DNA from: an uncultured Gammaproteobacteria bacterium
Lineage (GTDB): Bacteria > Patescibacteriota > Patescibacteriia > 2-01-FULL-39-33
DNA: 64,000 bases
Assembly (NCBI GenBank): GCA_964558935.1
Contig: CAZLFP010000001.1
Span: 5,299 to 69,298 of the forward strand
Direction of reading: 5' to 3'
A program made the translations under genes and the position numbers. How positions within the stretch are numbered: position 1 is the stretch's first letter; every line of letters starts with the position of its first letter. Shown piece by piece: positions 13,609-46,712 of the stretch. Below the pieces are notes generated by a model that had not been told where the DNA came from, made no database searches, and saw only the letters and a list, made by a program, of their open reading frames with translations.

Positions 13609-14088
13609 TTAATTCGTAGGCCCATCGTGGTAATCGATGTCGAGTTCATCGATCATTTTTTTGAGGTTTTCCGAGGACGGTTCGGGTGGACAAGCTTGAT
13701 CCGGCTTTTCCGGTTCAACCTGTTCAGATTCTTCGGTTGCCTCAAACTCTTCTGATCTGTCAAAAACACAGTTAAGCGTGTTGATGATAGAACAGAAAAG
13801 ATGAGTCAAGTCACTCTCAGTGTAAACAAAAGATTCTTTGGTGTCCGGATTGAATATGCTACAGGTTAAGCCCAGACTTTCATTGGCTTGACCTTCGACG
13901 CATTGTTCAATTTCCAAACTACCTTCCAGAGCCGCTGCTTTGCTTTGCATGAATTTGTCCAAGCTGGATAGCTGCCAGCGGGTTAGGCGATTGCAAGCTT
14001 CCACATACAAGCGGTATAGCAGGCGACCTTCAGCTAGACTGATTTCATACTCGTAGAAACCATCGATCAGGCATCGTTCACGCTTCAT
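13609..14088 (-). CDS. hypothetical protein (GC-elevated orphan)
   Basis: SD AAGGAGGG precedes the ATG. The 8-bp terminator hairpin GGGCCTAC/GTAGGCCC with T-run (minus strand) overlaps the stop. No recognisable domain. Confidence 0.45.
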   Translation of the reverse strand: MKRERCLIDGFYEYEISLAEGRLLYRLYVEACNRLTRWQLSSLDKFMQSKAAALEGSLEIEQCVEGQANESLGLTCSIFNPDTKESFVYTESDLTHLFCSIINTLNCVFDRSEEFEATEESEQVEPEKPDQACPPEPSSENLKKMIDELDIDYHDGPTN

Positions 14089-14234: not shown

Positions 14235-14696
14235 ATGTCAGTCAACTGGAGTGAAGTCAATGTGGATTGGAGTAATGCCACTCCTTTCGCGCTGAAGTTG
14301 CGTGAACGCATTGAAGGTCGGAGATTTGACCATGAGATCTTGGATGGAGAAGAAATTAGAGCCTTTCTTAAGGTTGAAACAGACGGTTTAACTCTGAGTG
14401 TTCATCATTGTGATTTAACGCGAACCAGGGTTTTACTTTTGTCAGGCATGATTCTGGCGATTGTCGAGATTGGCCAGAATCATCTGATTCCCAAATGGTG
14501 CGGTCCGACTTTTGAAGCTGACAGCGGCATCGGTTCTGAACAGGAAAGATACAAGAAGAGATATGCCTTCTTGTTGGAAATTGACAAGCAGCTTGTCGAT
14601 GGAATCAACATCCGGTACATTTCGGCTGATCAGGTGTTTCGAATGCCGCATCGGGCACCGGCCATCTTGTATGTCGAGTCACGGAAAGATTTCTGA
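14235..14696 (+). CDS. hypothetical protein (GC-elevated orphan)
   Basis: SD AGGAGG precedes the ATG and a terminator follows. No recognisable domain. Confidence 0.45.
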   Translation: MSVNWSEVNVDWSNATPFALKLRERIEGRRFDHEILDGEEIRAFLKVETDGLTLSVHHCDLTRTRVLLLSGMILAIVEIGQNHLIPKWCGPTFEADSGIGSEQERYKKRYAFLLEIDKQLVDGINIRYISADQVFRMPHRAPAILYVESRKDF

Positions 14697-14808: not shown

Positions 14809-16632
14809 ATGGCACAAAAATGGTTGCATAAGTTATTTAACCCTGGTCCGCGCGGTAAACTACGCTGGGCGGTTTTTGGTTTGTTAATCGTCTTTGTTTT
14901 GGCTGTCTTCTTTAATGTCATTGGCTTTGCCAATCCTGGAGCCGATTATGTTAACAGCGCATTAAAACAAGTGCCTGCTATTAGTGGTCTTAAAATCTGG
15001 CCAGCTGTCGAGACTAATCCGGTAGATAACAGTAAGGTTTTGGTATGGAAAAATTTGGCTGAGATAGATTTTAACACTTATGGCATGCCGTTTCGCCTGG
15101 GTCTAGATTTGCTGGGCGGCACTCACTTGGTTTACCAGGCTGACTTGTCCCAGGTAGATCCAATGGAACATGCGCAAGCAGTAGAAGGTGTTAGAGATGT
15201 GATTGAAAGACGAGTAAACGTGTTGGGTGTTTCCGAGCCCTTGGTTCAAACCAACAAAGTTGACAATGATTGGCGGGTGATTATTGAATTAGCTGGCGTG
15301 TATGATGTTAACCAAGCCATTGAGATGATTGGTGAAACTCCGCTGCTGGAATTTAAATTGGATACTGGCAGAACAACTCAATTGGATCCCGAACAACAAG
15401 CGCAACTGGACCAAGCCAATGCTGAGGTTAAACAGCTAGCCCAAGAGGTGTTAGAGCGGATTGTTAACGGTGAAGATATCGCCAGTTTAGCTGCTGAGTA
15501 TTCCGATGATCCGGGCAGTAAGGAAAACGGTGGATTGTATCAAGGAGTGACTCAGGGTATGTTTGTGCCGGCTTTTGATGAAGTTATTTTTAATCAATTA
15601 CAAGCCGGAGAGCTTAACCCAGACTTGGTTGAAACTCAGTTTGGTTACCATATTATTAAAAAAGAAGCGGAAAATGAGGTTGACGGTCAAAGACAAGTGG
15701 ATGTCAGACATATTTTATTGGCTGCCAAGACACCAGCTGATTTTGGATGGTCTGTTGAGCCAGAGTGGGAGAATACGGGTTTGACCGGTCAGCATCTGAA
15801 AAAAGCGACTGTCTATTTCCAGCAACAAGCCAATATTCCGCAAGTTCAATTAGAGTTTAACAACGAGGGGTCAGATTTATTTGCAGATATTACTCGCAAC
15901 AATTCTGGTAAAATGTTGGGTATTTTTTTAGACGGTTATCCAATCAGTCTGCCTAGAATCAATGAACCGATTTTATCTGGAGAAGCGGTTATTACCGGTG
16001 ATTTCAGTCCTCAGGAAGCTAAACTCTTAGCTCAAAGATTAAACGCCGGAGCTCTACCGGTGCCCATCAATCTCATTTCTCAAACCACTGTCGGTGCTAG
16101 CTTGGGTGCAGCTTCAGTTGAAAAAAGCTTAGTGTCCGGTATTTGGGGGTTGATATTGGTAGCCATCTTTATGATTATAATCTACCGTTTGCCGGGTATT
16201 ATGTCAGTTTTGGCTCTGGCTTTGTACACCGCTTTAGTCTTGTTGGTCTTTAAATTAGGCGGTGTCACCTTGACTTTGGCTGGTATTGCTGGCTTTATTT
16301 TGTCCATTGGTATGGCGGTGGATGCTAATGTTCTAATCTTCGAAAGATTGAAAGAGGAATTAAAGATTGGCCAGGATTTAACCACAGCTGTCGAACAGGG
16401 TTTTAATCGAGCATGGAGTTCCATTCGAGATTCCAATATTTCTTCCCTGATCACTTGCGGGATTTTATTTTGGTTCGGCTCCAGTATTATTAAGGGTTTT
16501 GCACTAACCTTGGGTTTGGGTATTCTGGTCTCAATGTTTTCTGCAATTGTCGTAACCAAACAATTTTTAAGATTAATTGCCAAGTGGCCGGTGAGTAAGT
16601 TTCTATGGTTGTACGGCTTGAATAAAAAATAG
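14809..16632 (+). CDS. secD: protein translocase subunit SecD with an inserted parvulin-type (PpiC) peptidyl-prolyl isomerase domain
   Basis: N-terminal TM, P1-domain motifs, then a rotamase motif (DIASLAAEYSDDPGSKENGGLYQGV...FGYHIIK), then the SecD C-terminal TM bundle. Confidence 0.8.
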   Translation: MAQKWLHKLFNPGPRGKLRWAVFGLLIVFVLAVFFNVIGFANPGADYVNSALKQVPAISGLKIWPAVETNPVDNSKVLVWKNLAEIDFNTYGMPFRLGLDLLGGTHLVYQADLSQVDPMEHAQAVEGVRDVIERRVNVLGVSEPLVQTNKVDNDWRVIIELAGVYDVNQAIEMIGETPLLEFKLDTGRTTQLDPEQQAQLDQANAEVKQLAQEVLERIVNGEDIASLAAEYSDDPGSKENGGLYQGVTQGMFVPAFDEVIFNQLQAGELNPDLVETQFGYHIIKKEAENEVDGQRQVDVRHILLAAKTPADFGWSVEPEWENTGLTGQHLKKATVYFQQQANIPQVQLEFNNEGSDLFADITRNNSGKMLGIFLDGYPISLPRINEPILSGEAVITGDFSPQEAKLLAQRLNAGALPVPINLISQTTVGASLGAASVEKSLVSGIWGLILVAIFMIIIYRLPGIMSVLALALYTALVLLVFKLGGVTLTLAGIAGFILSIGMAVDANVLIFERLKEELKIGQDLTTAVEQGFNRAWSSIRDSNISSLITCGILFWFGSSIIKGFALTLGLGILVSMFSAIVVTKQFLRLIAKWPVSKFLWLYGLNKK

Positions 16633-16633
16633 T

Positions 16634-17554
16634 ATGCAATACAGTATTGTTAAAAAAAGAAATTTTTTCTATCTGGTGTCTGCCAGCTTAATGCTTGCCA
16701 GTCTTATTAGTTTAAGTGTTTGGGGTTTGAAACTGGGTATTGATTTTACCGGTGGCAGTTTAATGGAGTTGAATTTTAGTCAGTCTCGACCGGAGAGTCA
16801 AGAGATCAAAGATGTTCTGGCTGAGTTTGACCTGGGAGACATTAAGGTTCAATCGGCAGGTGAGACTGCCGTGATGATTCGCTTTAAAGATATTGATGAA
16901 GCGATGCATCAGCAGATTCTAGATAAATTGAAATCTACTTACCAAGTGGAGGAAGAGTTGACTTTTGAAGAACAGCGTTTTGAATCGATCGGACCGGTGA
17001 TTGGGCAGGAATTAAAACAAAAAGCTGTTTGGGCGATTGGTCTGGCGGTGGTGATGATTATCTTATACATTGCCTATGCTTTTAGACAGGTGTCAAAACC
17101 GGTGGCTTCTTGGAAATTTGGTATTGCCGCAATTCTGGCTTTAATTCATGATATTGTAATCGTTACCGGCCTATTTTCTGTACTTGGTCACGTTCAGGGC
17201 GTGGAAATAGACTCTTTGTTTATTACTGCTTTGTTAACGATTTTAGGTTTTTCCGTGCATGATACCATTGTGGTTTTTGACAGAACAAGAGAAAACTTAA
17301 AAAAGCATTACACTGCCGATTTCGAAGAAGTGGTCAGCGACAGTGTCAACCAAACCATTACCAGATCCATCAATACCTCAGTGACCACTTTACTTGTTTT
17401 AGTTACCATGTATATATATGGTGGTTCAAGCATTGCTAATTTCATTCTAGCTTTAATTGTTGGAGTGATCATTGGAACATACTCTTCAATTTTTGTGGCT
17501 AGTCCCATTATTGTAAGTTGGCAGCGTTGGGATCAGAAACGCAAGTCTGCTTAA
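16634..17554 (+). CDS. secF: protein translocase subunit SecF
   Basis: SecF signature FTGGSLMELNF and a 6-TM C-terminus. Adjacent to secD. Confidence 0.85.
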   Translation: MQYSIVKKRNFFYLVSASLMLASLISLSVWGLKLGIDFTGGSLMELNFSQSRPESQEIKDVLAEFDLGDIKVQSAGETAVMIRFKDIDEAMHQQILDKLKSTYQVEEELTFEEQRFESIGPVIGQELKQKAVWAIGLAVVMIILYIAYAFRQVSKPVASWKFGIAAILALIHDIVIVTGLFSVLGHVQGVEIDSLFITALLTILGFSVHDTIVVFDRTRENLKKHYTADFEEVVSDSVNQTITRSINTSVTTLLVLVTMYIYGGSSIANFILALIVGVIIGTYSSIFVASPIIVSWQRWDQKRKSA

Positions 17555-17579: not shown

Positions 17580-17831
17580 ATGAATTGGAAGTTAGTTATT
17601 GGCGTTAAGAGACTGTTGGGCCTGCCAGTGATTGACTGGTCAAAGATTAACTTTAGGGATATGAATCATGCCTTGGGGTTGGGTTATTGCTATCTGCCCA
17701 AACCGGGCTTGGATGAAGGTCAATTACCGGCAGATTTTGATCCGGATACCAGACCGGATCTGTTTCTCAAACATAAGCTGACTCAAGCAGACAGGCACGC
17801 CATACAACGCCTTGTTCGTCCTCGCAAGTAG
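17580..17831 (+). CDS. hypothetical small protein (83 aa)
   Basis: Strong SD GGGAGGGAAG precedes the ATG. No recognisable domain. Confidence 0.4.
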   Translation: MNWKLVIGVKRLLGLPVIDWSKINFRDMNHALGLGYCYLPKPGLDEGQLPADFDPDTRPDLFLKHKLTQADRHAIQRLVRPRK

Positions 17832-17879: not shown

Positions 17880-17908
17880 TTGACAAAAATAATTATTCTT
17901 GATATAAT
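17880..17908 (+). promoter_or_regulatory. sigma70-like promoter
   Basis: TTGACA at 17880-17885, a 17-nt spacer, then TATAAT at 17903-17908. The track ORF start at 17880 coincides with this -35 element. Confidence 0.5.
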
Positions 17909-17984
17909 TAAAACATCAAGTCAAGATATTGGTATTTTTTGTTTAAATTTAGACAAATATACCTCATTATTGATTACTAAAAAT

Positions 17985-19130
17985 ATGTCAATATTAGATC
18001 AGGTTAGAAAAAATCAATTTCAAGAACAATTAGCCGGTTTCAATCCTGTTGAAACCCTGGCTATTTTATTTTCTCGTTTATCTGAGAAAGAAAAAGATAT
18101 TCTGGAACGCAGATTCGGCTTATCTAGCGGAGACAGACAGACTTTAGAAGAGATTGGCGGTCAATATAACATCACTCGGGAAAGAGTTAGACAGATTGAG
18201 AATTTAAGCATCAAGAAATTGAAAGATTTAGAGGAATTGAGGGCTGAAATTTCTCAAGCTGAAAAGGTAACTGCTCAATTATTGGAGCAGTACGGAGGTG
18301 TTATGGAAGAGTTATTCTTTTTAGAGCATATCTTAAGCTATTTGGAAGATCATCCCAACAGTCAGAATGCTTTATTGTTTTTGGCTGAATATATCTTTTC
18401 TGACAACGTTAACAAAATTCACTATGACAAAGAATTTAACAATTTATGGACAGTAGGATCGGTTGATGTTGATACTCTTAAGCAAGTTATCAACCAGATG
18501 GTTAAATTGATTCAACAGCACGGCAAACCCATAAAATTGAATGATTTGTTAGCTCAGTTCAAGGAATCGGATTATTTTCAGAAGAATCGAGATAAATTCA
18601 TTACAGCCACTACTTTCTTAGACGTGACTGATGAGGATATTGACAAAATTTTGGAAAGCTACTTAAGAGCATCGCGCAAGATTAAACAAAATTTATTTGA
18701 TGAATGGGGTCTGATTACTTGGGGTAGTGTACAGCCTAAGAAAATTAATGATAAAATATATATAGTAATGAAAAAGGCGAACAAGCCTCTGCATTTTACA
18801 GAAATTGCCCAAGCGATTAATGAGACTAAATTCGACGACAAAATTGCTTACGCGCCAACCGTCCATAATGAATTAATCCTGGATGACAAGTATGTCTTAG
18901 TGGGAAGAGGTATTTATGCTTTAAAGGAGTGGGGTTACAAACCCGGCAGCGTAGCTCAAGTTTTGGAAGATTTACTCAGAGAACATGGCCCTTTATCTAA
19001 GGATGAGATCATTGAAAAAGTGTTGGAACGTAGAAATGTTAAAAGCTCAACAATCTATTTATCTTTGATGAACAACAAGAATATTAAGCGTACCAAGGAT
19101 AATAAGTACATGTTAGTGGAAGGTAAGTAA
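17985..19130 (+). CDS. sigma-70 region-4 (HTH) domain protein with ~300-aa C-terminal domain of unknown function
   Basis: ILERRFGLSSGDRQTLEEIGGQYNITRERVRQIENLSIKKL matches sigma70 region 4. Confidence 0.6.
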   Translation: MSILDQVRKNQFQEQLAGFNPVETLAILFSRLSEKEKDILERRFGLSSGDRQTLEEIGGQYNITRERVRQIENLSIKKLKDLEELRAEISQAEKVTAQLLEQYGGVMEELFFLEHILSYLEDHPNSQNALLFLAEYIFSDNVNKIHYDKEFNNLWTVGSVDVDTLKQVINQMVKLIQQHGKPIKLNDLLAQFKESDYFQKNRDKFITATTFLDVTDEDIDKILESYLRASRKIKQNLFDEWGLITWGSVQPKKINDKIYIVMKKANKPLHFTEIAQAINETKFDDKIAYAPTVHNELILDDKYVLVGRGIYALKEWGYKPGSVAQVLEDLLREHGPLSKDEIIEKVLERRNVKSSTIYLSLMNNKNIKRTKDNKYMLVEGK

Positions 19131-19191: not shown

Positions 19192-20679
19192 ATGGGAATT
19201 GAAATATCTTTTAATTTTGAGGCCTGGCTAGCAAATTTACTGGCCTTTGGTTCTCAACCACCAACTCTCATTGCCTGGCAGCTGTTTATACAAGGCGGCT
19301 GGGTGATTTTTTTAGTTTTAATCATCTATGTTTTCTACCTTACTTGGCTGGATATGCGCCAAGGCAAGTTTGCCGGTAAATGGCAGCATGTTTTATTAGC
19401 CATAGATATTCCCAGAAACAACGAACAAACTCCTAAGGCTGTGGAAAGTGTATTTGCGGCGTTGGCTGGAACTCAATCCAGCGGTAATTTAATCGATATC
19501 TACTGGGAAGGTAAGGTTCAAGAAAGCTTTTCCTTTGAAATCGTCTCTTTAGAAGGCTATATTCAATTTTTAATTCGTACACCCAGTCATTACCGAGACT
19601 TAATCGAAGCTGCCATTTACGCCCAATATCCCGAAGCAGAAATTACAGAAGTCAATGACTACACAGCTGATTATGCCAAATTGACTTTTCCAAATCAAGA
19701 ATACAAACTTTGGGGAACTGAGTTTGTGTTGGTCAAGGATTATCCTTTTCCCATTAAAACCTATCCTGAATTTGAACATACTTTGAGTGGTAATTTTTTA
19801 GACCCCATGGCTGGTTTGTTGGAGATTATGTCACGATTTGGACCCGGTGAACAGATTTGGTTACAGTTTGTAGTCACTCCATTGAAAGCCCCGGGTTGGG
19901 ATGAAAAAGCGGTCAAAGTCTTGAAGGCCTTCAAAGGTGAAGACTATACACCTCCACCCACCTGGGAAGAAAAATACATTGTAAAGCCTGTGACCTTACT
20001 CTTATGGCCCATCACATTTATTATGAATGAGATTTTCGGCTTAGGTGGATCAGGAGCAGAAAAAAAAGAACCAGATCAATGGAAAATGTTTAAAATTTCT
20101 CCTGGTGAACGCCTGGTCTTTGAAAAAATAGAGCGTAAACTGAGCAAGCATGCTTTCAACACCAAATTTAGATTTATCTACTTAGGTAAAGCTGAGGCTT
20201 TTAGCAAACCCAAAGGAATCGGTGGTATTATTAGTGCTATTCAGCAGTACAACACCACGGATGCCAATGGTTTTAAACCGGGCGGTAAAACCAAAACCGG
20301 AGCAGATTATTTTAATGTGGCCAAGAGAACAGCTCAGCGTCAGAACGCCATTTTACGCAATTATGTCAATAGGAGTAATTACTATGGAGAAGCGCCCTCG
20401 GCCATGAAATTAAACACCGAAGAATTAGCTTCCCTTTGGCATTTTCCAACCATCTTAGTTAAAGCGCCCTCAGTGGAAATGGCCGGTTCCAGACGTGCCG
20501 TACCTCCTTCACGCCTACCATACCAAACAGCCAATCAGGCTCCGGCAGCTGCTATTGTTGAACCACCCGCTGCTACAGTGCCATCACCGGTACAGGCTCC
20601 TCAAACAGTCAATGAAACTTCTTCAGATGACACCCGTCCTTCAGAGCCGACTCCACCCCCTAACTTACCGACCGTTTAA
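19192..20679 (+). CDS. membrane protein with large cytoplasmic domain and Pro-rich C-terminal tail
   Basis: N-terminal TM (WVIFLVLIIYVFYLTWL). Immediately upstream of the HerA-like ATPase, so likely one operon. Confidence 0.5.
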   Translation: MGIEISFNFEAWLANLLAFGSQPPTLIAWQLFIQGGWVIFLVLIIYVFYLTWLDMRQGKFAGKWQHVLLAIDIPRNNEQTPKAVESVFAALAGTQSSGNLIDIYWEGKVQESFSFEIVSLEGYIQFLIRTPSHYRDLIEAAIYAQYPEAEITEVNDYTADYAKLTFPNQEYKLWGTEFVLVKDYPFPIKTYPEFEHTLSGNFLDPMAGLLEIMSRFGPGEQIWLQFVVTPLKAPGWDEKAVKVLKAFKGEDYTPPPTWEEKYIVKPVTLLLWPITFIMNEIFGLGGSGAEKKEPDQWKMFKISPGERLVFEKIERKLSKHAFNTKFRFIYLGKAEAFSKPKGIGGIISAIQQYNTTDANGFKPGGKTKTGADYFNVAKRTAQRQNAILRNYVNRSNYYGEAPSAMKLNTEELASLWHFPTILVKAPSVEMAGSRRAVPPSRLPYQTANQAPAAAIVEPPAATVPSPVQAPQTVNETSSDDTRPSEPTPPPNLPTV

Positions 20680-20696
20680 TGATATAATACATACAG

Positions 20697-22394
20697 ATGG
20701 AAGATTTACAGATCGACAAAGTAACAGGCTTTGCTGAAACCAATTTCCGCAACCAGCGGAGAGCTTTTGGCATTAAGCGAGATGACAGGCGTCGTCATAT
20801 GTATATTATTGGTAAAACCGGTATGGGTAAAACCACACTATTGGAGAATATGGTTTTAGCTGATGTTATTAACGGTGAAGGTTGTTGTTACATTGATCCT
20901 CACGGAGATACTGCGGAAAAGATTTTAAATTTCATACCCAATAACCGAGTTAACGATGTTGTTTATTTTAATCCGGCCGATGTAAATTTTCCCATCGCTT
21001 TCAATATTTTGGAAGCAGTGGAAGAAAAAGATAAGCATTTAATTGCTTCTGGCTTAGTGGGCGTTTTTAAGAAGCAGTTTGCCGACAGCTGGGGACCTAG
21101 ATTGGAGTACATTTTGCGCAATGCCATTTTGGCTTTATTGGATTATCCCGGCAGTACTTTGTTAGGCATCATGCGGATTTTAGTGGATGATAAATACCGT
21201 AAAAAAGTGGTTGAAAAGATTAAAGATCCGGTTGTAAAATCTTTTTGGACCAATGAGTATACCAAATGGAATGAAAGAACCCTGCAAGAAGTCATTTCTC
21301 CCATTCAGAATAAGGTTGGACAATTTTTGTCTAATTTCTTAATTAGGAACATTGTTGGCCAGGTGAAATCCACCGTTAACATGCGAGAGATTATAGATAA
21401 CAAGAAGATTTTAATTATGAACTTGTCCAAAGGTAGAATTGGTGAAGACACTATGCAATTACTCGGCTCCATGATGGTGACCAAGTTGTATTTAGCTGCC
21501 ATGAGCCGGGTGGATATTCTGGAAAAAGAACGACAGGATTTTTTCTTGTATGTTGATGAGTTTCAAAATTTTGCGACTGACAGTTTTGCCGACATTCTAT
21601 CTGAAGCCAGAAAGTATCGCTTGAATTTAATTATTGCTCACCAGTTTATTGAACAACTGCCTGAAAATGTGGTAGCAGCAGTTTTTGGTAATGTGGGCAC
21701 TTTGATCAACTTTAGAGTTGGAGCTTCAGATGCCGAGACCTTGGTTAAAGAATTCTCTCCCGTTTTTACAGAAGAGGATTTGGTTAATTTGCCGGCTTTC
21801 AATATTTACCTCAAATTGATGATAGATGGTGTGGCTTCAGATCCTTTTTCCGCTGCCACTTTACCACCTTTATTTGATGAAATGGTGACTAACAATTTTG
21901 AAAAAGTGATTAAAGTTTCCAGAGAAAGATATGCACATCCTAGGACGGTAGTTGAAGACAAGATTAATCGTTGGTCAGCTATGGATTTAAGTGACAAGGT
22001 TATGCAGGCAACCGGTAACAGAGGAGATGGAAAGGGTCAAGCCGGTGGTCAAATCAAGAAAAAGAAAGTGGAAGACAAAAAGAATAAGACCATTAAAATC
22101 AATTGCTCATTATGTGGCAAAGAGGATTATGTCAATTTCCAGCCGGATCCTTCCAAACCCATTTACTGTGATGATTGTTATGAGCGAGTCAGAGAGAATC
22201 GACGAACCAAAAAAGATGATCGGAATGTTAATTTGGATCTAATTGAAAAGTCTGCTCAAAAAAAAGTTCAGAGTATTAAATTGGCAGCAGCTGTCAAACA
22301 AACACCGGTCAATTTCAAACCCACTCAACAACCCAAAAGAAGTAAACAAGCTCCGGTAAAAATAGATGAAGGTCAAGTTGTTAAAATGGATTAA
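20697..22394 (+). CDS. HerA/FtsK-superfamily (DUF87-type) P-loop ATPase with C-terminal C4 zinc ribbon and basic tail
   Basis: Walker A IGKTGMGKTT followed by the HerA-like IDPHGD, Walker B FLYVDEFQNF, and zinc ribbon CSLCGKEDY...CDDCYE. Confidence 0.55.
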   Translation: MEDLQIDKVTGFAETNFRNQRRAFGIKRDDRRRHMYIIGKTGMGKTTLLENMVLADVINGEGCCYIDPHGDTAEKILNFIPNNRVNDVVYFNPADVNFPIAFNILEAVEEKDKHLIASGLVGVFKKQFADSWGPRLEYILRNAILALLDYPGSTLLGIMRILVDDKYRKKVVEKIKDPVVKSFWTNEYTKWNERTLQEVISPIQNKVGQFLSNFLIRNIVGQVKSTVNMREIIDNKKILIMNLSKGRIGEDTMQLLGSMMVTKLYLAAMSRVDILEKERQDFFLYVDEFQNFATDSFADILSEARKYRLNLIIAHQFIEQLPENVVAAVFGNVGTLINFRVGASDAETLVKEFSPVFTEEDLVNLPAFNIYLKLMIDGVASDPFSAATLPPLFDEMVTNNFEKVIKVSRERYAHPRTVVEDKINRWSAMDLSDKVMQATGNRGDGKGQAGGQIKKKKVEDKKNKTIKINCSLCGKEDYVNFQPDPSKPIYCDDCYERVRENRRTKKDDRNVNLDLIEKSAQKKVQSIKLAAAVKQTPVNFKPTQQPKRSKQAPVKIDEGQVVKMD

Positions 22395-22456: not shown

Positions 22457-22969
22457 ATGCTTGAAATGATTATTTCAACTTTTTATTTATGTCTACCAGC
22501 TTATGTAGCCAATATGCTACCGGCCGTATGTTCGAGGTGGCATTGCTTTAGGTTTTTGGGCAAGCCGGTTCACGAGCGAGCATTCGGAGATCATAAGACT
22601 TGGCGAGGCCTGGTGGTCGGTACTATCGGGGGTATAATTGTAGCCGGTCTTCAGAGTTTAATTACAACCGGTTATGAAATTATAGATTATAATCAAACAT
22701 GGTGGCTATTTGGTTTCTTGGCTGGTTTAGGCGCAGTTCTAGGAGACTTAACTAAGAGTTATTTTAAGCGACGAATTGGCTTTAAACCCGGTGAACCTTG
22801 GCTGTTTTTTGATCAAGTGGATTACCTGGTGGGTTTTTTTTGCTTTACGTCCTTCATTGTGTATCCGACTTGGCAGTTAGTGGCCATCGGTTTGATTCTG
22901 AGCTTAATTTTACATCCTTTGGTTAATCTTGTAGCTTATTATTTAAAAATAAAAGCCGTGTGGTGGTAG
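22457..22969 (+). CDS. CDP-archaeol synthase (CarS/DUF46) family membrane protein
   Basis: Motifs GDHKTWRG and GDLTKSYFKRRIGFKPGE match the CarS/CdsA-like family. About 5 TMs. Confidence 0.55.
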   Translation: MLEMIISTFYLCLPAYVANMLPAVCSRWHCFRFLGKPVHERAFGDHKTWRGLVVGTIGGIIVAGLQSLITTGYEIIDYNQTWWLFGFLAGLGAVLGDLTKSYFKRRIGFKPGEPWLFFDQVDYLVGFFCFTSFIVYPTWQLVAIGLILSLILHPLVNLVAYYLKIKAVWW

Positions 22970-43820: not shown

Positions 43821-44741
43821 ATGAATCTAGCTCAATTTTTCGACCAATTCTGGGGTGCTACTTGGAGGAAAAATCCAGTCTGGTTTGAAGTTCAGATTGA
43901 CAAGATTAAAGAGAATATTTGGCCGGGCTGGACGTTGTTTAGCCGGATCTATGATCATCAACTTGGCGTGCTTAAAAAGCACAAATGTCCAGATGAGATA
44001 ATTGACAATTTAATGACTCAGAAGCAGGGAATATATGAGGCACTTTGCCAACTGACACCCATTCCTGGCTCATGTCATTTTTTACCGGTTATTCCGGCCA
44101 AGTGTTTGGACTTAAGGAAACAGATGAAAATGGTCAGATTTGCCAATTGTAGTGGTGAAGTTGATCCAAACTGCTCCCAAGATTACAAACAAGCGTCAGA
44201 CGTACCGGATCAGCCTTACTATGTCTTGGGTTTGGACGTTCATCAAGATCTAAGACATCGAATGCTCGATCTGTCCATTGCTCTGAATCGATTTCATCAT
44301 GAGCAAGATTCAGAAGGTATTAGCTGGCTTAAAGGCATTGATGACCAAACAATATTAAGATCGGTGATGCTGTGCCATGAGCTGTCCGGAGCTAAACCCA
44401 TTACGGCCTGTGAAGGCATTGCCATGGGCATTCACAGTCAAGACAGCTTTTTCTTGGGCAATGGTGCCAAGATCCACTGTCTGGGTTCCATTATCGAAGT
44501 TAATGGCCAGACAGATCCGGTTGAGATTTCCAAGGGTTATCCCGTGAAGTGTTGTCTAGAAGATTTTGGTTTTGACCGTGATAATGTCTCAGGTGATGAG
44601 ACTATTATGGTTAAGCATATGACCAACTGGCTGGCATCCATCAATTTCGTCCGTGACGATGCCGCGGTACTGGGTGGTATGATGACCAGCTTGGATCCCG
44701 GAGACTATTTCCCGTCTTGCCAGGTACGCGTCGCTGGTTAG
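43821..44741 (+). CDS. hypothetical Cys-rich protein (306 aa), GC-elevated
   Basis: SD AGGAGGG precedes ATG 43821. A terminator is shared with the convergent histidine kinase gene. Confidence 0.45.
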   Translation: MNLAQFFDQFWGATWRKNPVWFEVQIDKIKENIWPGWTLFSRIYDHQLGVLKKHKCPDEIIDNLMTQKQGIYEALCQLTPIPGSCHFLPVIPAKCLDLRKQMKMVRFANCSGEVDPNCSQDYKQASDVPDQPYYVLGLDVHQDLRHRMLDLSIALNRFHHEQDSEGISWLKGIDDQTILRSVMLCHELSGAKPITACEGIAMGIHSQDSFFLGNGAKIHCLGSIIEVNGQTDPVEISKGYPVKCCLEDFGFDRDNVSGDETIMVKHMTNWLASINFVRDDAAVLGGMMTSLDPGDYFPSCQVRVAG

Positions 44742-44758
44742 ACTATTGGAGTGAGCTG

Positions 44759-45637
44759 TTATTGCTCACTCTTTTTATGTTCAGCGTTAAAAGGTAATAT
44801 GAGGCTAAACTGGCTGCCTTGTCCAGGACAATTAAGAACATTGATTTGAGCCTTAAAATCTGTCTTTAACATGTGTTTGGTTAAAGACAGACCCAGGCCG
44901 GTCTTGGTTTGGTTGGAGAAAAGAGGATCAAAAATTTTGTCTAACCGGCTTTTGTTAATACCTCCGGCTTGGTCACGAATGGTCAGATAATAATGAGTGG
45001 GCTGAACTTTAAGATTGATTTGGATAGTCTTGTCGGTGGTGTTTTGACCTTGGTAAGCTTCAATAATGTTGTTAAGTAGATTGATAATAATCTGACGAAA
45101 AGAATTCTGTCTGCCGAATAATTCAGCTTGGGGTGAGATATTGATAATAACTCGAATGTTTTCCTTGACTAAAGGATAGTGTAGGATATCTACGGCTTGT
45201 TCAAAGGTGGTTTTAAGATTAAAACATTGATCTATAAACTGATTTTGGAATTGAACTCGGTTAGATTCAATAACTTGTTGGATTTTTTGGCTGCAAGATA
45301 CAGCTTGGTTTAAAAAAGGATTGGCCTGCTGTTGCTCCAGTTGGTACAGACTCAAATTCAAGCCAGTCAGAGGATTGGATAAATCATGGAGTAGGCCGGT
45401 AGTTTGTTGTCCTAAACTGGCTAGTTGGTAGATCTGTAACAGTTGCAACTGTTTGTTGAGAATATCTTTTCTGACTTTAGATAGAATTGAGATAGTGATT
45501 AAAATACCGGCCAGTAAAGCCGGTATAAAGAAGATGGGGGAGAGTACTTTAATCAATGGTGAAGACACAAGGCCTAGCATTAATCCTGTTAATGCTCCTA
45601 TGCTGAGCCAAAGTTGTTGGTCTTTAGGTAAAAACAT
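44759..45637 (-). CDS. sensor histidine kinase
   Basis: N-terminal TMs, H-box LHDLSNPLTG and HATPase_c G-boxes. Confidence 0.8.
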   Translation of the reverse strand: MFLPKDQQLWLSIGALTGLMLGLVSSPLIKVLSPIFFIPALLAGILITISILSKVRKDILNKQLQLLQIYQLASLGQQTTGLLHDLSNPLTGLNLSLYQLEQQQANPFLNQAVSCSQKIQQVIESNRVQFQNQFIDQCFNLKTTFEQAVDILHYPLVKENIRVIINISPQAELFGRQNSFRQIIINLLNNIIEAYQGQNTTDKTIQINLKVQPTHYYLTIRDQAGGINKSRLDKIFDPLFSNQTKTGLGLSLTKHMLKTDFKAQINVLNCPGQGSQFSLILPFNAEHKKSEQ

Positions 45638-45641
45638 TATA

Positions 45642-46712
45642 TTACATGTCTCGATTAATCATATATTGGGCAATTTTATCTAAAAAGTCAATAGCGATCG
45701 GATTTAAATTTTTTTGTTTTAATTTGGGAATGTGTTCAAGAGCTTGTTCGGCATAGTGTTTTGAGATTTTTCTGGAATAATCCAAGGAGCCGGAGTCAAT
45801 CATGGCCTGTTTAGCAGCTTGAATATCTGCTTCAGTTGCCTGTTTTTGTCCCCAGACTTTGAGTAAAGCCTGTTTGTGCGTTTCAGATCCCAGATCAAAA
45901 GTCTTCATAATCAGCAGTGTACCCTTGCCCTGTAACAAGTCCGAATTGGCTGATTTACCTGTTTTAAGCGGATCTCCAAAAATACCCAAGATATCGTCTT
46001 GCAATTGGAAAGCAACACCGGCACTCATGGCATAGTCATGTAAAATATCTAAAATTGTTTGGTCCAAACCGGCCAAAATTGCTCCGATGGCCAGGGGATT
46101 GTCATAGGTATAGGTGGAAGTTTTGCTTTGATGAACAGCAATGATGTCAGCTTCTTGCCAATGGTCATGATGTTTTTCCAAATAAACGTCAAAGGCCTGA
46201 CCGTAGGCACAATGAGTTATGGATTTGAGCAGCTTAGCCATGGCTTGTGTTACCAATTCTGGATTGGAACTGGATCTTAACAGTAAATTATAGCCTAAAG
46301 TTAAAACTGCATCTCCAATATTGATAGCCATGGCATTGCCATAATGCTGGTCAATTTCTCCAAATACCTTATGAGTGGTTGGTTGACCTCTTCTCATCTC
46401 ATCCTGATCCATAAAATCATCATGCATCAGTAGGGCGGTGTGAACTAATTCCACAGCCATACCCGCGTAATAGATTTTGTCATCTACTTGGTCGGATTCT
46501 TGTCCAAGCAGATAACCGTAATAGACCAAGGCGGCTCGTAATCTTTTGGCTTTACGCAGATTATGCTCTTTTGCATGCTCAATTAAGGTTTTAACAAGCT
46601 CTTTTTGTTTCAAATTAAAACCAAAGTTGGCAGCCAATTCTTGATCCCAGTATGTGGCTAGTTTTTGGTCAAAAATCTCAGCTATCTGTTTAAGTTGTTG
46701 TTTAATATCCAT
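45642..46712 (-). CDS. polyprenyl diphosphate synthase (trans-isoprenyl, GGPP/FPP synthase-like)
   Basis: FARM motif LMHDDFMDQDEMRRG and SARM motif FQLQDDILG. Confidence 0.8.
   Translation of the reverse strand: MDIKQQLKQIAEIFDQKLATYWDQELAANFGFNLKQKELVKTLIEHAKEHNLRKAKRLRAALVYYGYLLGQESDQVDDKIYYAGMAVELVHTALLMHDDFMDQDEMRRGQPTTHKVFGEIDQHYGNAMAINIGDAVLTLGYNLLLRSSSNPELVTQAMAKLLKSITHCAYGQAFDVYLEKHHDHWQEADIIAVHQSKTSTYTYDNPLAIGAILAGLDQTILDILHDYAMSAGVAFQLQDDILGIFGDPLKTGKSANSDLLQGKGTLLIMKTFDLGSETHKQALLKVWGQKQATEADIQAAKQAMIDSGSLDYSRKISKHYAEQALEHIPKLKQKNLNPIAIDFLDKIAQYMINRDM

Follow-up and report, generated by a model that had tools for sequence, protein, structure and literature searches.

How secreted chains are handed over from SecYEG to extracytoplasmic chaperones is an active question, with the SurA-holo-translocon, PpiD-YfgM and the Mycoplasma dome as recent cases. 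The secD locus described here poses it in a direct form: can a folding catalyst be part of the translocon accessory complex itself? We analysed a window of 64,000 nucleotides, the whole stretch taken from contig CAZLFP010000001.1 (assembly GCA_964558935.1) of a bacterium labelled as an uncultured gammaproteobacterium and placed by GTDB in the Patescibacteriota. An earlier note on this DNA, made from its letters alone, had read one gene as a SecD with a PrsA/SurA-like rotamase embedded in it. We found that the gene does encode a SecD, that the embedded domain is a circularly permuted parvulin, and that the fusion recurs in other genomes.

The secD open reading frame (ORF) lies at 14809..16632 on the + strand, stop codon included, and encodes 607 amino acids (aa) from an ATG start. 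The ORF list gives it as one uninterrupted frame with 0 internal stops, and the peptide that the earlier note had quoted for the rotamase (GGLYQGV...GYHIIK) is aa 241-284 of that frame, so the two parts do not come from separate genes joined by a frameshift. Rotamase and SecD domains lie on the same polypeptide, as had been supposed. Pfam finds Sec_GG at aa 93-112 (21.1 bits), SecD_1st, the N-terminal part of P1, at aa 126-184 (56.3 bits), SecDF_P1_head at aa 323-418 (98.9 bits) and SecD_SecF_C at aa 421-591 (52.6 bits), all above their cut-offs. Between SecD_1st and the P1 head it places Rotamase (PF00639; aa 199-286, 64.9 bits, cut-off 21.7, E 1e-17) and Rotamase_3 (PF13616; aa 201-284, 76.0 bits, cut-off 22.5, E 5e-21).

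The whole insert spans aa 186-317 (15364..15759, +), is without counterpart in insert-free SecDs and, as modelled, folds alone as one domain. Ahead of it lie the Sec_GG motif and the N-terminal P1 base (aa 93-184; 15085..15360, +), which Pfam identifies and which aligns to residues 33-119 of Thermus thermophilus SecDF (TtSecDF; its residue numbers were counted from the coordinates of the alignments). The base ends in the strand ETPLLEFK (about aa 176-184, with LLEFK at 180-184), near- or fully invariant in 54 homologues. Behind the insert comes the P1 head subdomain (aa 318-420; 15760..16068, +), which aligns from TtSecDF residue 160. Against the structure 3AQP, aa 95-185 match Tt 33-119, ending at the LEFR strand, and aa 325-601 match Tt 160-437. 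By hidden Markov model (HMM) matches the gap from base to head is 133 aa here, compared with 12-55 aa in insert-free Patescibacteria-type SecDs; the parvulin therefore replaces the short variable connection between the P1 base and the mobile P1 head. Compared with canonical SecDF, there are about 120 extra parvulin residues between the LEFK base strand and the P1 head, where T. thermophilus has about 40 unrelated residues. The P1_head profile match begins at position 18, and this truncation is not due to the insert, as the match has the same start in an insert-free Saccharibacteria SecD. The earlier placement of a parvulin-type rotamase inside the extracytoplasmic region of SecD thus held up, with both Rotamase matches falling within P1 and likenesses to PrsA, PpiC and SurA. 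Its placement beside the transmembrane (TM) bundle did not, since the P1 head of about 100 aa separates the insert from the bundle.

That the insert belongs to the rotamase family is clear from Pfam scores above the cut-offs and from likeness to PrsA, PpiC and SurA, which are its sequence matches in the PDB, in both sequence and predicted fold. The NCBIfam PrsA, PpiC and SurA models match it far under their cut-offs, with matches confined to aa 189-300. It is 45% identical to E. coli Par10 over 76 aa, the segment TQFGYHIIK being the same in both (residues 14-88 of the Par10 sequence used agree with PDB 1JNS). The predicted fold has the four-stranded antiparallel sheet and four helices of a parvulin.

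The order of the strands is not the canonical one. Parvulins run beta-alpha3-beta-alpha-beta2, with two conserved histidines on the first and last strands, hydrogen-bonded together (PMC2678132), whereas the order here is alpha3-beta-alpha-beta2-beta. The parvulin body (aa 194-291; 15388..15681, +), delimited by Pfam, DSSP and the Par10 alignment, comprises alpha1-alpha2-alpha3-beta2-alpha4-beta3-beta4. Beta1 is missing from it: with this strand placed after beta4, the Pfam match does not begin until profile position 10 of 97. Ahead of alpha1 stands the SecD strand LLEFK, without a histidine; right after beta4 (FGYHIIK) comes ...VDVRHILL, a typical beta1 sequence. This trailing beta1-type strand, QRQVDVRHILLA (aa 294-305; 15688..15723, +), carries H301 (15709-15711) and is predicted to form a hairpin onto beta4. 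The lack of a beta1 in the body, the histidine-bearing strand after beta4, a gain in profile score in every protein scored, the predicted hairpin and the fit to a crystal structure, 8HM3, together lead us to conclude that the insert is a circularly permuted parvulin in which the VRHILL strand fills the slot of the absent N-terminal beta1.

The profile scores came from a canonical HMM built from non-SecD parvulin units and Par10, with which we scored 112 single-insert SecDs. The body alone averaged 95.1 bits; adding the native upstream SecD sequence gave a mean of 95.4, putting a shuffled strand in front 96.2, and putting the trailing strand there 111.3. The gain over the shuffled control averaged 15 bits (range 7-21) and was positive in 112/112, and the gain over the native upstream sequence was about 16 bits. 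With the strand moved in front, the start of the alignment shifted from about HMM position 30 to 13. The same rearrangement scored for one protein against Pfam gained only 2 to 5 bits, and BLASTP of the permuted sequence against Par10 left the strand, being short, unaligned.

Structure prediction gave the same picture. In the full-length AlphaFold2 (AF2) model, made from a 54-sequence alignment (mean predicted local distance difference test score, pLDDT, 80; predicted template modelling score, pTM, 0.47), strands 279-291 and 294-305 form a hairpin in a block with pLDDT 85-91. A model of the insert only (aa 186-316, 31 sequences, no templates) is one compact domain with mean pLDDT 95.3 and pTM 0.87, the trailing strand reaching 96-98. 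We infer a contact between H281 and H301. The strand is also well conserved, H301 being present in 51/54 homologues and I302 and L303 in 54/54, on a par with H281 and D234. Chain B of 8HM3 can be superposed on the insert model with 116 aligned residues at 2.2 A, compared with 79-92 residues for canonical parvulins. In SurA, which superposes at 15.8 A, the inter-domain HILL strand belongs to the next parvulin. The AF2 weights are older than the release of 8HM3 in 2023 and the model was template-free, so its agreement with 8HM3 is an independent check.

The 8HM3 and 8HM4 entries contain a Bacteroides PPIase (peptidyl-prolyl isomerase) whose first parvulin (chain residues ~155-265) is followed by INTRHILL and shows, within the HMMER envelope, no HIL strand ahead of alpha1. 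This parvulin appears to have the same permuted connectivity as the insert, and we found no paper in the literature describing this.

We also considered VRHILL as a mere remnant of a lost second parvulin. This was rejected as the main reading: the body has no other beta1, the strand is conserved like the active site, and it has a pLDDT of 96-98 within one compact domain that fits 8HM3. Loss of a second parvulin is plausible as the route by which the permutation arose. Tandem parvulins are separated by the same beta4-linker-beta1 spacing as that of the insert, and so a truncated tandem array is the probable origin of the permutation.

Does the permuted domain keep an active site? Correspondences taken from the Par10 alignment and the canonical HMM equate D234 (15508-15510, +) with Pin1 C113 and B. 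subtilis PrsA D154, T276 (15634-15636, +) with Pin1 T152, and H301 and H281 (the latter at 15649-15651, +) with the histidine pair; the canonical roles of these residues have been described (PMC2678132). Among the 54 homologues D234, H281 and a threonine or serine at 276 are found in 54/54 and H301 in 51/54. The proline-pocket positions Y/L244, F/M/L252 and F/Y256 are kept, while position 251, beside the pocket, is variable. Judged from sequence, the insert has the two histidines, the Cys/Asp, the Thr/Ser and the hydrophobic proline pocket of a parvulin and is under selection as an enzyme-like site, with PPIase catalysis putative. The conservation of single inserts contrasts with relatives that carry two units, in which unit 1 has lost the beta4 histidine in 7/9 loci; that unit is under relaxed constraint at the insert site.

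The rest of the protein is an ordinary SecD. The NCBIfam equivalog-domain model for SecD, TIGR01129, scores 380.2 bits over aa 97-586 (cut-off 244.4), the N-terminus agrees with the family consensus, and the best PDB matches, both by sequence and by fold (Foldseek), are the SecDF structures 3AQP, 5YHF and 5XAN. The predicted topology (DSSP on the AF2 model) is that of the family: a helix at aa 14-37, an alpha/beta region at 64-428 and helices at 434-459, 461-484, 490-519, 524-556 and 559-591. The first of these is the predicted TM1 (14848..14919, +), with the hydrophobic run WAVFGLLIVFVLAVFF. The TM2-TM6 bundle (aa 421-595; 16069..16593, +), covered by SecD_SecF_C and the predicted helices 434-591, holds D505 in the motif AVDANVLIFER, which aligns with D340 of TtSecDF (AVDGNVLSFER). 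The secF ORF (306 aa; 16634..17554, +) starts 1 nucleotide past the secD stop and scores 300.2 bits against TIGR00966 (cut-off 160) and 209 bits against Pfam SecD_SecF_C, giving SecD its usual partner. SecF aligns to TtSecDF 450-726 and keeps the equivalents of D637 and R671, its SVHDTIVVFDR and NQTITRS aligning with Tt SINDSIVVSDR and NQTLSRT. We take D340, D637 and R671 of TtSecDF to be proton-path residues. With both TIGR models above their cut-offs, D505 and the D637 and R671 equivalents in place and secF adjoining, the SecDF core looks, at the level of sequence, intact and functional. The 607-aa protein is a member of the SecD family in all the features that could be compared. It shares with the canonical SecDFs of T. 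thermophilus (3AQP/5YHF) and Deinococcus (5XAN) the order TM1, P1 base, P1 head, TM2-6, the TM4 aspartate and a SecF partner with D637 and R671 equivalents.

The fusion is not peculiar to this genome. A homologue search of ~5.8 billion proteins listed the 120 best matches, 53-67% identical and mostly full length, and 120/120 carry both SecD and Rotamase Pfam domains. Those that are named all come from Patescibacteria (Falkow-, Buchanan-, Uhr- and Kuenenbacteria, Parcubacteria and "Patescibacteria group"). Local HMMs covering the base, insert, head and TM segments classed 115 of them as single-parvulin and 5 as double-parvulin SecDs. We then scanned GTDB representatives, a single genome for each species, and kept the 80 loci whose SecD most resembled the query; 19 have a parvulin insert and 61 have none. 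One parvulin is present in eight loci (L001-L007 and L009; Buchanan-, Kerfeld-, Moran-, Komeilibacteria and others) and two tandem units at the same site in nine (L008, L010-L016 and L018; Parcubacteria, Patescibacteria group and others). The remaining two (L020 and L028; Peregrinibacteria) are SecDF fusions with a very degenerate first unit and a canonical one. The 61 loci with no parvulin come from Saccharibacteria, Nomura-, Ryan-, Wolfe-, Taylor- and Daviesbacteria, Gastranaerophilales, Cyanobacteria and Chloroflexota. Three units were found in one representative (P0186) of a 50%-identity library.

The double forms (for example L008:2902-5100 and L012:2809-4869) run body1, SHILV, body2 (GYHII), trailing strand. 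Their body1 has no beta1 in front, and the trailing strand carries its histidine in only 4/9. The two Peregrinibacteria proteins (L020:865-4062 and L028:2833-6279) are single-chain SecD-SecF fusions of >1000 aa with a gap of 258-292 aa at the same site, filled by a very degenerate parvulin-like stretch below HMM detection, a canonical parvulin and a trailing strand without histidine. In a neighbour-joining tree of the SecD core, made with the insert removed and without support values, all insert-bearing SecDs fall in one clade, which also encloses four sequences lacking the insert and shows single forms mixed among double ones. This pattern is suggestive of, and fits, a single ancient acquisition within a Patescibacteria sub-lineage, after which units were gained and lost.

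A search of representatives with the insert alone returned 16 SecD-embedded units among the top 150, stand-alone one- or multi-unit parvulin proteins dominating; such a search is unfit for counting fusions, as its scores sum over units and favour stand-alone proteins. The closest stand-alone relatives are ordinary PrsA/SurA-like proteins, some with SurA_N, SLH or TPR domains, and among them there was no special clue to the donor. No second parvulin besides the SecD insert was found in the 64-kb window.

Ten of the surveyed loci (L003, L008, L013, L014, L016-L018, L027, L049 and L060) are labelled Gammaproteobacteria, Binatia or Lysobacteraceae. Yet their SecDs, which share 42-58% identity with the query, group with those of the Patescibacteria type, and the labels probably reflect mis-binned or mislabelled metagenome-assembled genomes. 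Separately, eight loci with Chloroflexota, Dehalococcoidia or cyanobacterial SecDs (L029, L045, L052, L055, L061, L063, L067 and L074) have 79-195 extra residues between base and head; the extras of the three scanned (L052, L063 and L074) have no Pfam domain. The P1 base-head junction seems to be a general insertion hot spot.

What might a parvulin do in this position? With a probability that we put at about 0.6, the protein is a functional SecD whose permuted parvulin acts as a PrsA/SurA-like foldase tethered to the mobile, substrate-binding P1 head. In the predicted path the chain leaves SecD at about aa 185, runs through the parvulin from alpha1 to beta4, makes the hairpin and passes through VRHILL, which supplies the second active-site histidine, back into the P1 head. 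This head is believed to be a polypeptide-binding element that moves when protons are transported (PMC9987972), and in Gram-positive bacteria post-translocation folding is served by the membrane-anchored foldase PrsA (PMC12445088). The fusion would place an isomerase on the extracytoplasmic arm that elsewhere binds unfolded chains as they emerge and swings as protons flow. In this place the parvulin could capture Xaa-Pro segments of secreted and membrane proteins leaving SecYEG and isomerise or hold them, speeding or safeguarding their folding. Wired into SecD, such a foldase would meet every chain from SecYEG and move with the P1 head. It would be a covalent version, in a Patescibacteria lineage, of the docking achieved by SurA, PpiD or PrsA-like lipoproteins. 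The SecD chain enters and leaves the domain where a canonical parvulin would have its beta1-alpha1 loop, here cut open. This loop borders the substrate cleft in Pin1-type enzymes, and the cleft may therefore face the P1 head. The earlier note's suggestion that a folding catalyst would be physically coupled to the translocon accessory complex follows from this architecture, and it fits the published non-covalent associations of parvulins with SecDF (PMC9987972; bioRxiv 10.1101/2025.04.25.650208).

Several observations weigh against a foldase role. How the parvulin is oriented with respect to the P1 head and the SecY exit cannot be read reliably from the full-length model, with its pTM of 0.47. 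Active-site mutations in B. subtilis PrsA abolish PPIase activity with little effect on secretion, the essential function being carried by the NC chaperone domain (PMC12445088), and the 607-aa protein has no SurA_N, SurA_N_2 or SurA_N_3 match (Pfam, E <= 0.1). The conserved histidines of parvulins may be structural rather than catalytic (PMC2678132). Nor is the insert required for SecD function, as most sampled Patescibacteria SecDs are insert-free (61/80 loci overall).

Some of the same observations would fit a parvulin with a mainly non-catalytic, holdase role comparable to that of SurA P1 or the PpiD parvulin, by which the P1 head would gain a larger surface for gripping unfolded chains and isomerisation would be irrelevant or lost. 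We consider this unlikely, though by no means far-fetched. It draws on the dispensability of PrsA PPIase activity and the possibly structural histidine, on the variable position 251 next to the pocket and on the double forms, where unit 1 is kept despite its histidine loss and non-catalytic units evidently persist. However, the single-insert family keeps D234, T/S276, H281, H301 and the proline pocket almost without exception, and loss of function would more likely have brought drift, as in unit 1 of the double forms. Holding and catalysis are not mutually exclusive. The same conserved active site would not be needed in a mere spacer, which makes it very improbable that the insert is a structural or regulatory module, either a strut or latch altering the swing of the P1 head or a docking site for an envelope component. 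Its position at the base-to-head junction, the hinge of P1 movement, would suit such a module, and unrelated inserts of 79-195 aa without Pfam domains, where scanned, are tolerated at this site in Chloroflexota and cyanobacterial SecDs, but every parvulin known to partner SecDF or SecYEG acts on substrates. An artefact, whether a frameshift, a mis-assembly or a chimeric contig joining a PPIase gene to secD, we give virtually no credence. Nothing we found supports it, although the window appears, judging by where its homologues come from and how they are named, to be a metagenome-type assembly of an uncultured lineage, and against it stand the continuous ORF, the in-frame SecD P1 segments on both sides of the insert, and the 120 listed homologues from independent assemblies, which down to 53% identity share the architecture and mostly match in length. 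The 17 species-representative loci with one or two parvulin units and the 2 Peregrinibacteria loci with one unit and a degenerate stretch point the same way.

A bolder extension of the tethered foldase is that it is energy-coupled. Each proton-driven stroke would bring the cleft to the SecY exit and then draw a bound Xaa-Pro segment outward, timing catalysis and release mechanically in a compartment without ATP. Two further proposals go with it, that the lineage has dispensed with stand-alone PrsA/SurA altogether, and that the permuted connectivity and the series of forms with one, two or three units record a permutation-by-duplication pathway. Taken jointly we think the three quite unlikely to hold.

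How does the tethered parvulin compare with known parvulin-translocon systems? PrsA of Bacillus, Staphylococcus and Listeria (4WO7, 6VJ6, 1ZK6) is a separate lipoprotein dimer with a canonically ordered parvulin within an N/C chaperone domain. By contrast, the 607-aa protein lacks a SurA_N or NC domain, and its parvulin is circularly permuted and anchored through SecD. E. coli SurA binds the SecYEG-SecDF-YidC holo-translocon, and AlphaFold puts its two parvulin domains on the SecDF P1 head (PMC9987972). Parvulin domains set against the P1 head at the translocon exit are thus a likeness between the two systems, as is the combination of one degenerate and one intact parvulin unit found in SurA and in the double-insert relatives. 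In contrast to the covalent link here, SurA is a soluble protein of the periplasm that binds transiently, possesses an N/C chaperone core and brings substrates to the machinery for beta-barrel assembly (BAM). The host lineage is generally regarded as lacking an outer membrane.

PpiD-YfgM is also located at SecYEG (PMC9643414). In the E. coli complex (8ZHT) PpiD is a separate single-pass protein contacting SecY, whereas here the parvulin is part of SecD. The PpiD parvulin domain is reported to be catalytically inactive; the SecD parvulin, to go by its sequence, keeps catalytic-type residues. In Mycoplasma, SecDF-SecYEG is topped by a dome of PrsA-like lipoproteins that contain a PPIC domain, and substrate density contacts the active PPIC domain (bioRxiv 10.1101/2025.04.25.650208; 10.1101/2024.09.05.611430). 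This dome (Mdp444/436/489 of M. pneumoniae) likewise belongs to a genome-reduced bacterium and puts a foldase with a PPIC domain directly onto SecDF, where chains leave the translocon, but it is non-covalent, its large trimeric lipoproteins forming a chamber, while here there is one 120-aa domain within SecD. The Bacteroides periplasmic PPIase targeted by BfUbb (8HM3/8HM4), which appears to share the permuted connectivity of the insert, is a stand-alone, multi-domain SurA-like protein of 427 residues outside SecD, and it has a second, degenerate parvulin body after the strand, unlike the single insert. Chaperones of the PrsA, SurA and PpiD type have targeting or an anchor of their own (lipoprotein signal, signal peptide or single TM) and flanking chaperone domains. 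The insert is internal to SecD (aa 186-317), is anchored by the SecD TM bundle and is flanked by SecD P1 segments. It resembles the parvulin module of these proteins but, having neither an N/C chaperone domain nor an anchor of its own, stands outside their family.

In full-text literature searches we came across neither a SecD-parvulin fusion nor a permuted parvulin, and public annotations of these fusion proteins read SecD only. The sequences, the Pfam matches and the parts were already known; the combination, the permuted topology and the phyletic pattern appear to be undescribed. The fusion should be moderately surprising to a Sec specialist. A natural, conserved fusion counts as evidence of the Rosetta-stone kind that parvulin foldases cooperate with the SecDF P1 head, and it offers a minimal single-chain system for structural and biochemical study of their coupling. 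The forms with one, two and three units, with 8HM3 as a matching crystal structure, are useful for studying domain insertion and permutation. The SecD-only annotation leaves the foldase capacity of these reduced genomes unrecorded.

Four ORFs flanking secDF, at 13609-14088 (-), 14235-14696 (+), 17580-17831 (+) and 19192-20679 (+), encode 159, 153, 83 and 495 aa and have no Pfam match at E <= 0.001. The only matches of a 416-aa ORF at 17880-19130 (+) are to Sigma70 region 4, close to the N-terminus, and, weakly, to HARE-HTH. As no sigma region 2 was detected in this ORF, its product is unusual for a sigma-related protein. A 565-aa ORF at 20697-22394 (+), located a few genes downstream of secDF, has TrwB_AAD_bind and TraG-D_C matches, as in a type IV coupling protein, together with a C-terminal treble-clef zinc finger. 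The 170-aa ORF at 22457-22969 (+) matches CarS-like proteins (CDP-archaeol synthase) over its full length (E 2e-31), in an otherwise bacterial window. On a larger scale, GC skew is positive (about +0.1 to +0.25) in nearly all 2-kb blocks from 1 to ~46 kb and then about 0, and the predicted genes lie almost all on the + strand up to ~44.7 kb and on mixed strands after. The region at ~44700-46000 of the window may be a replication-related strand switch.

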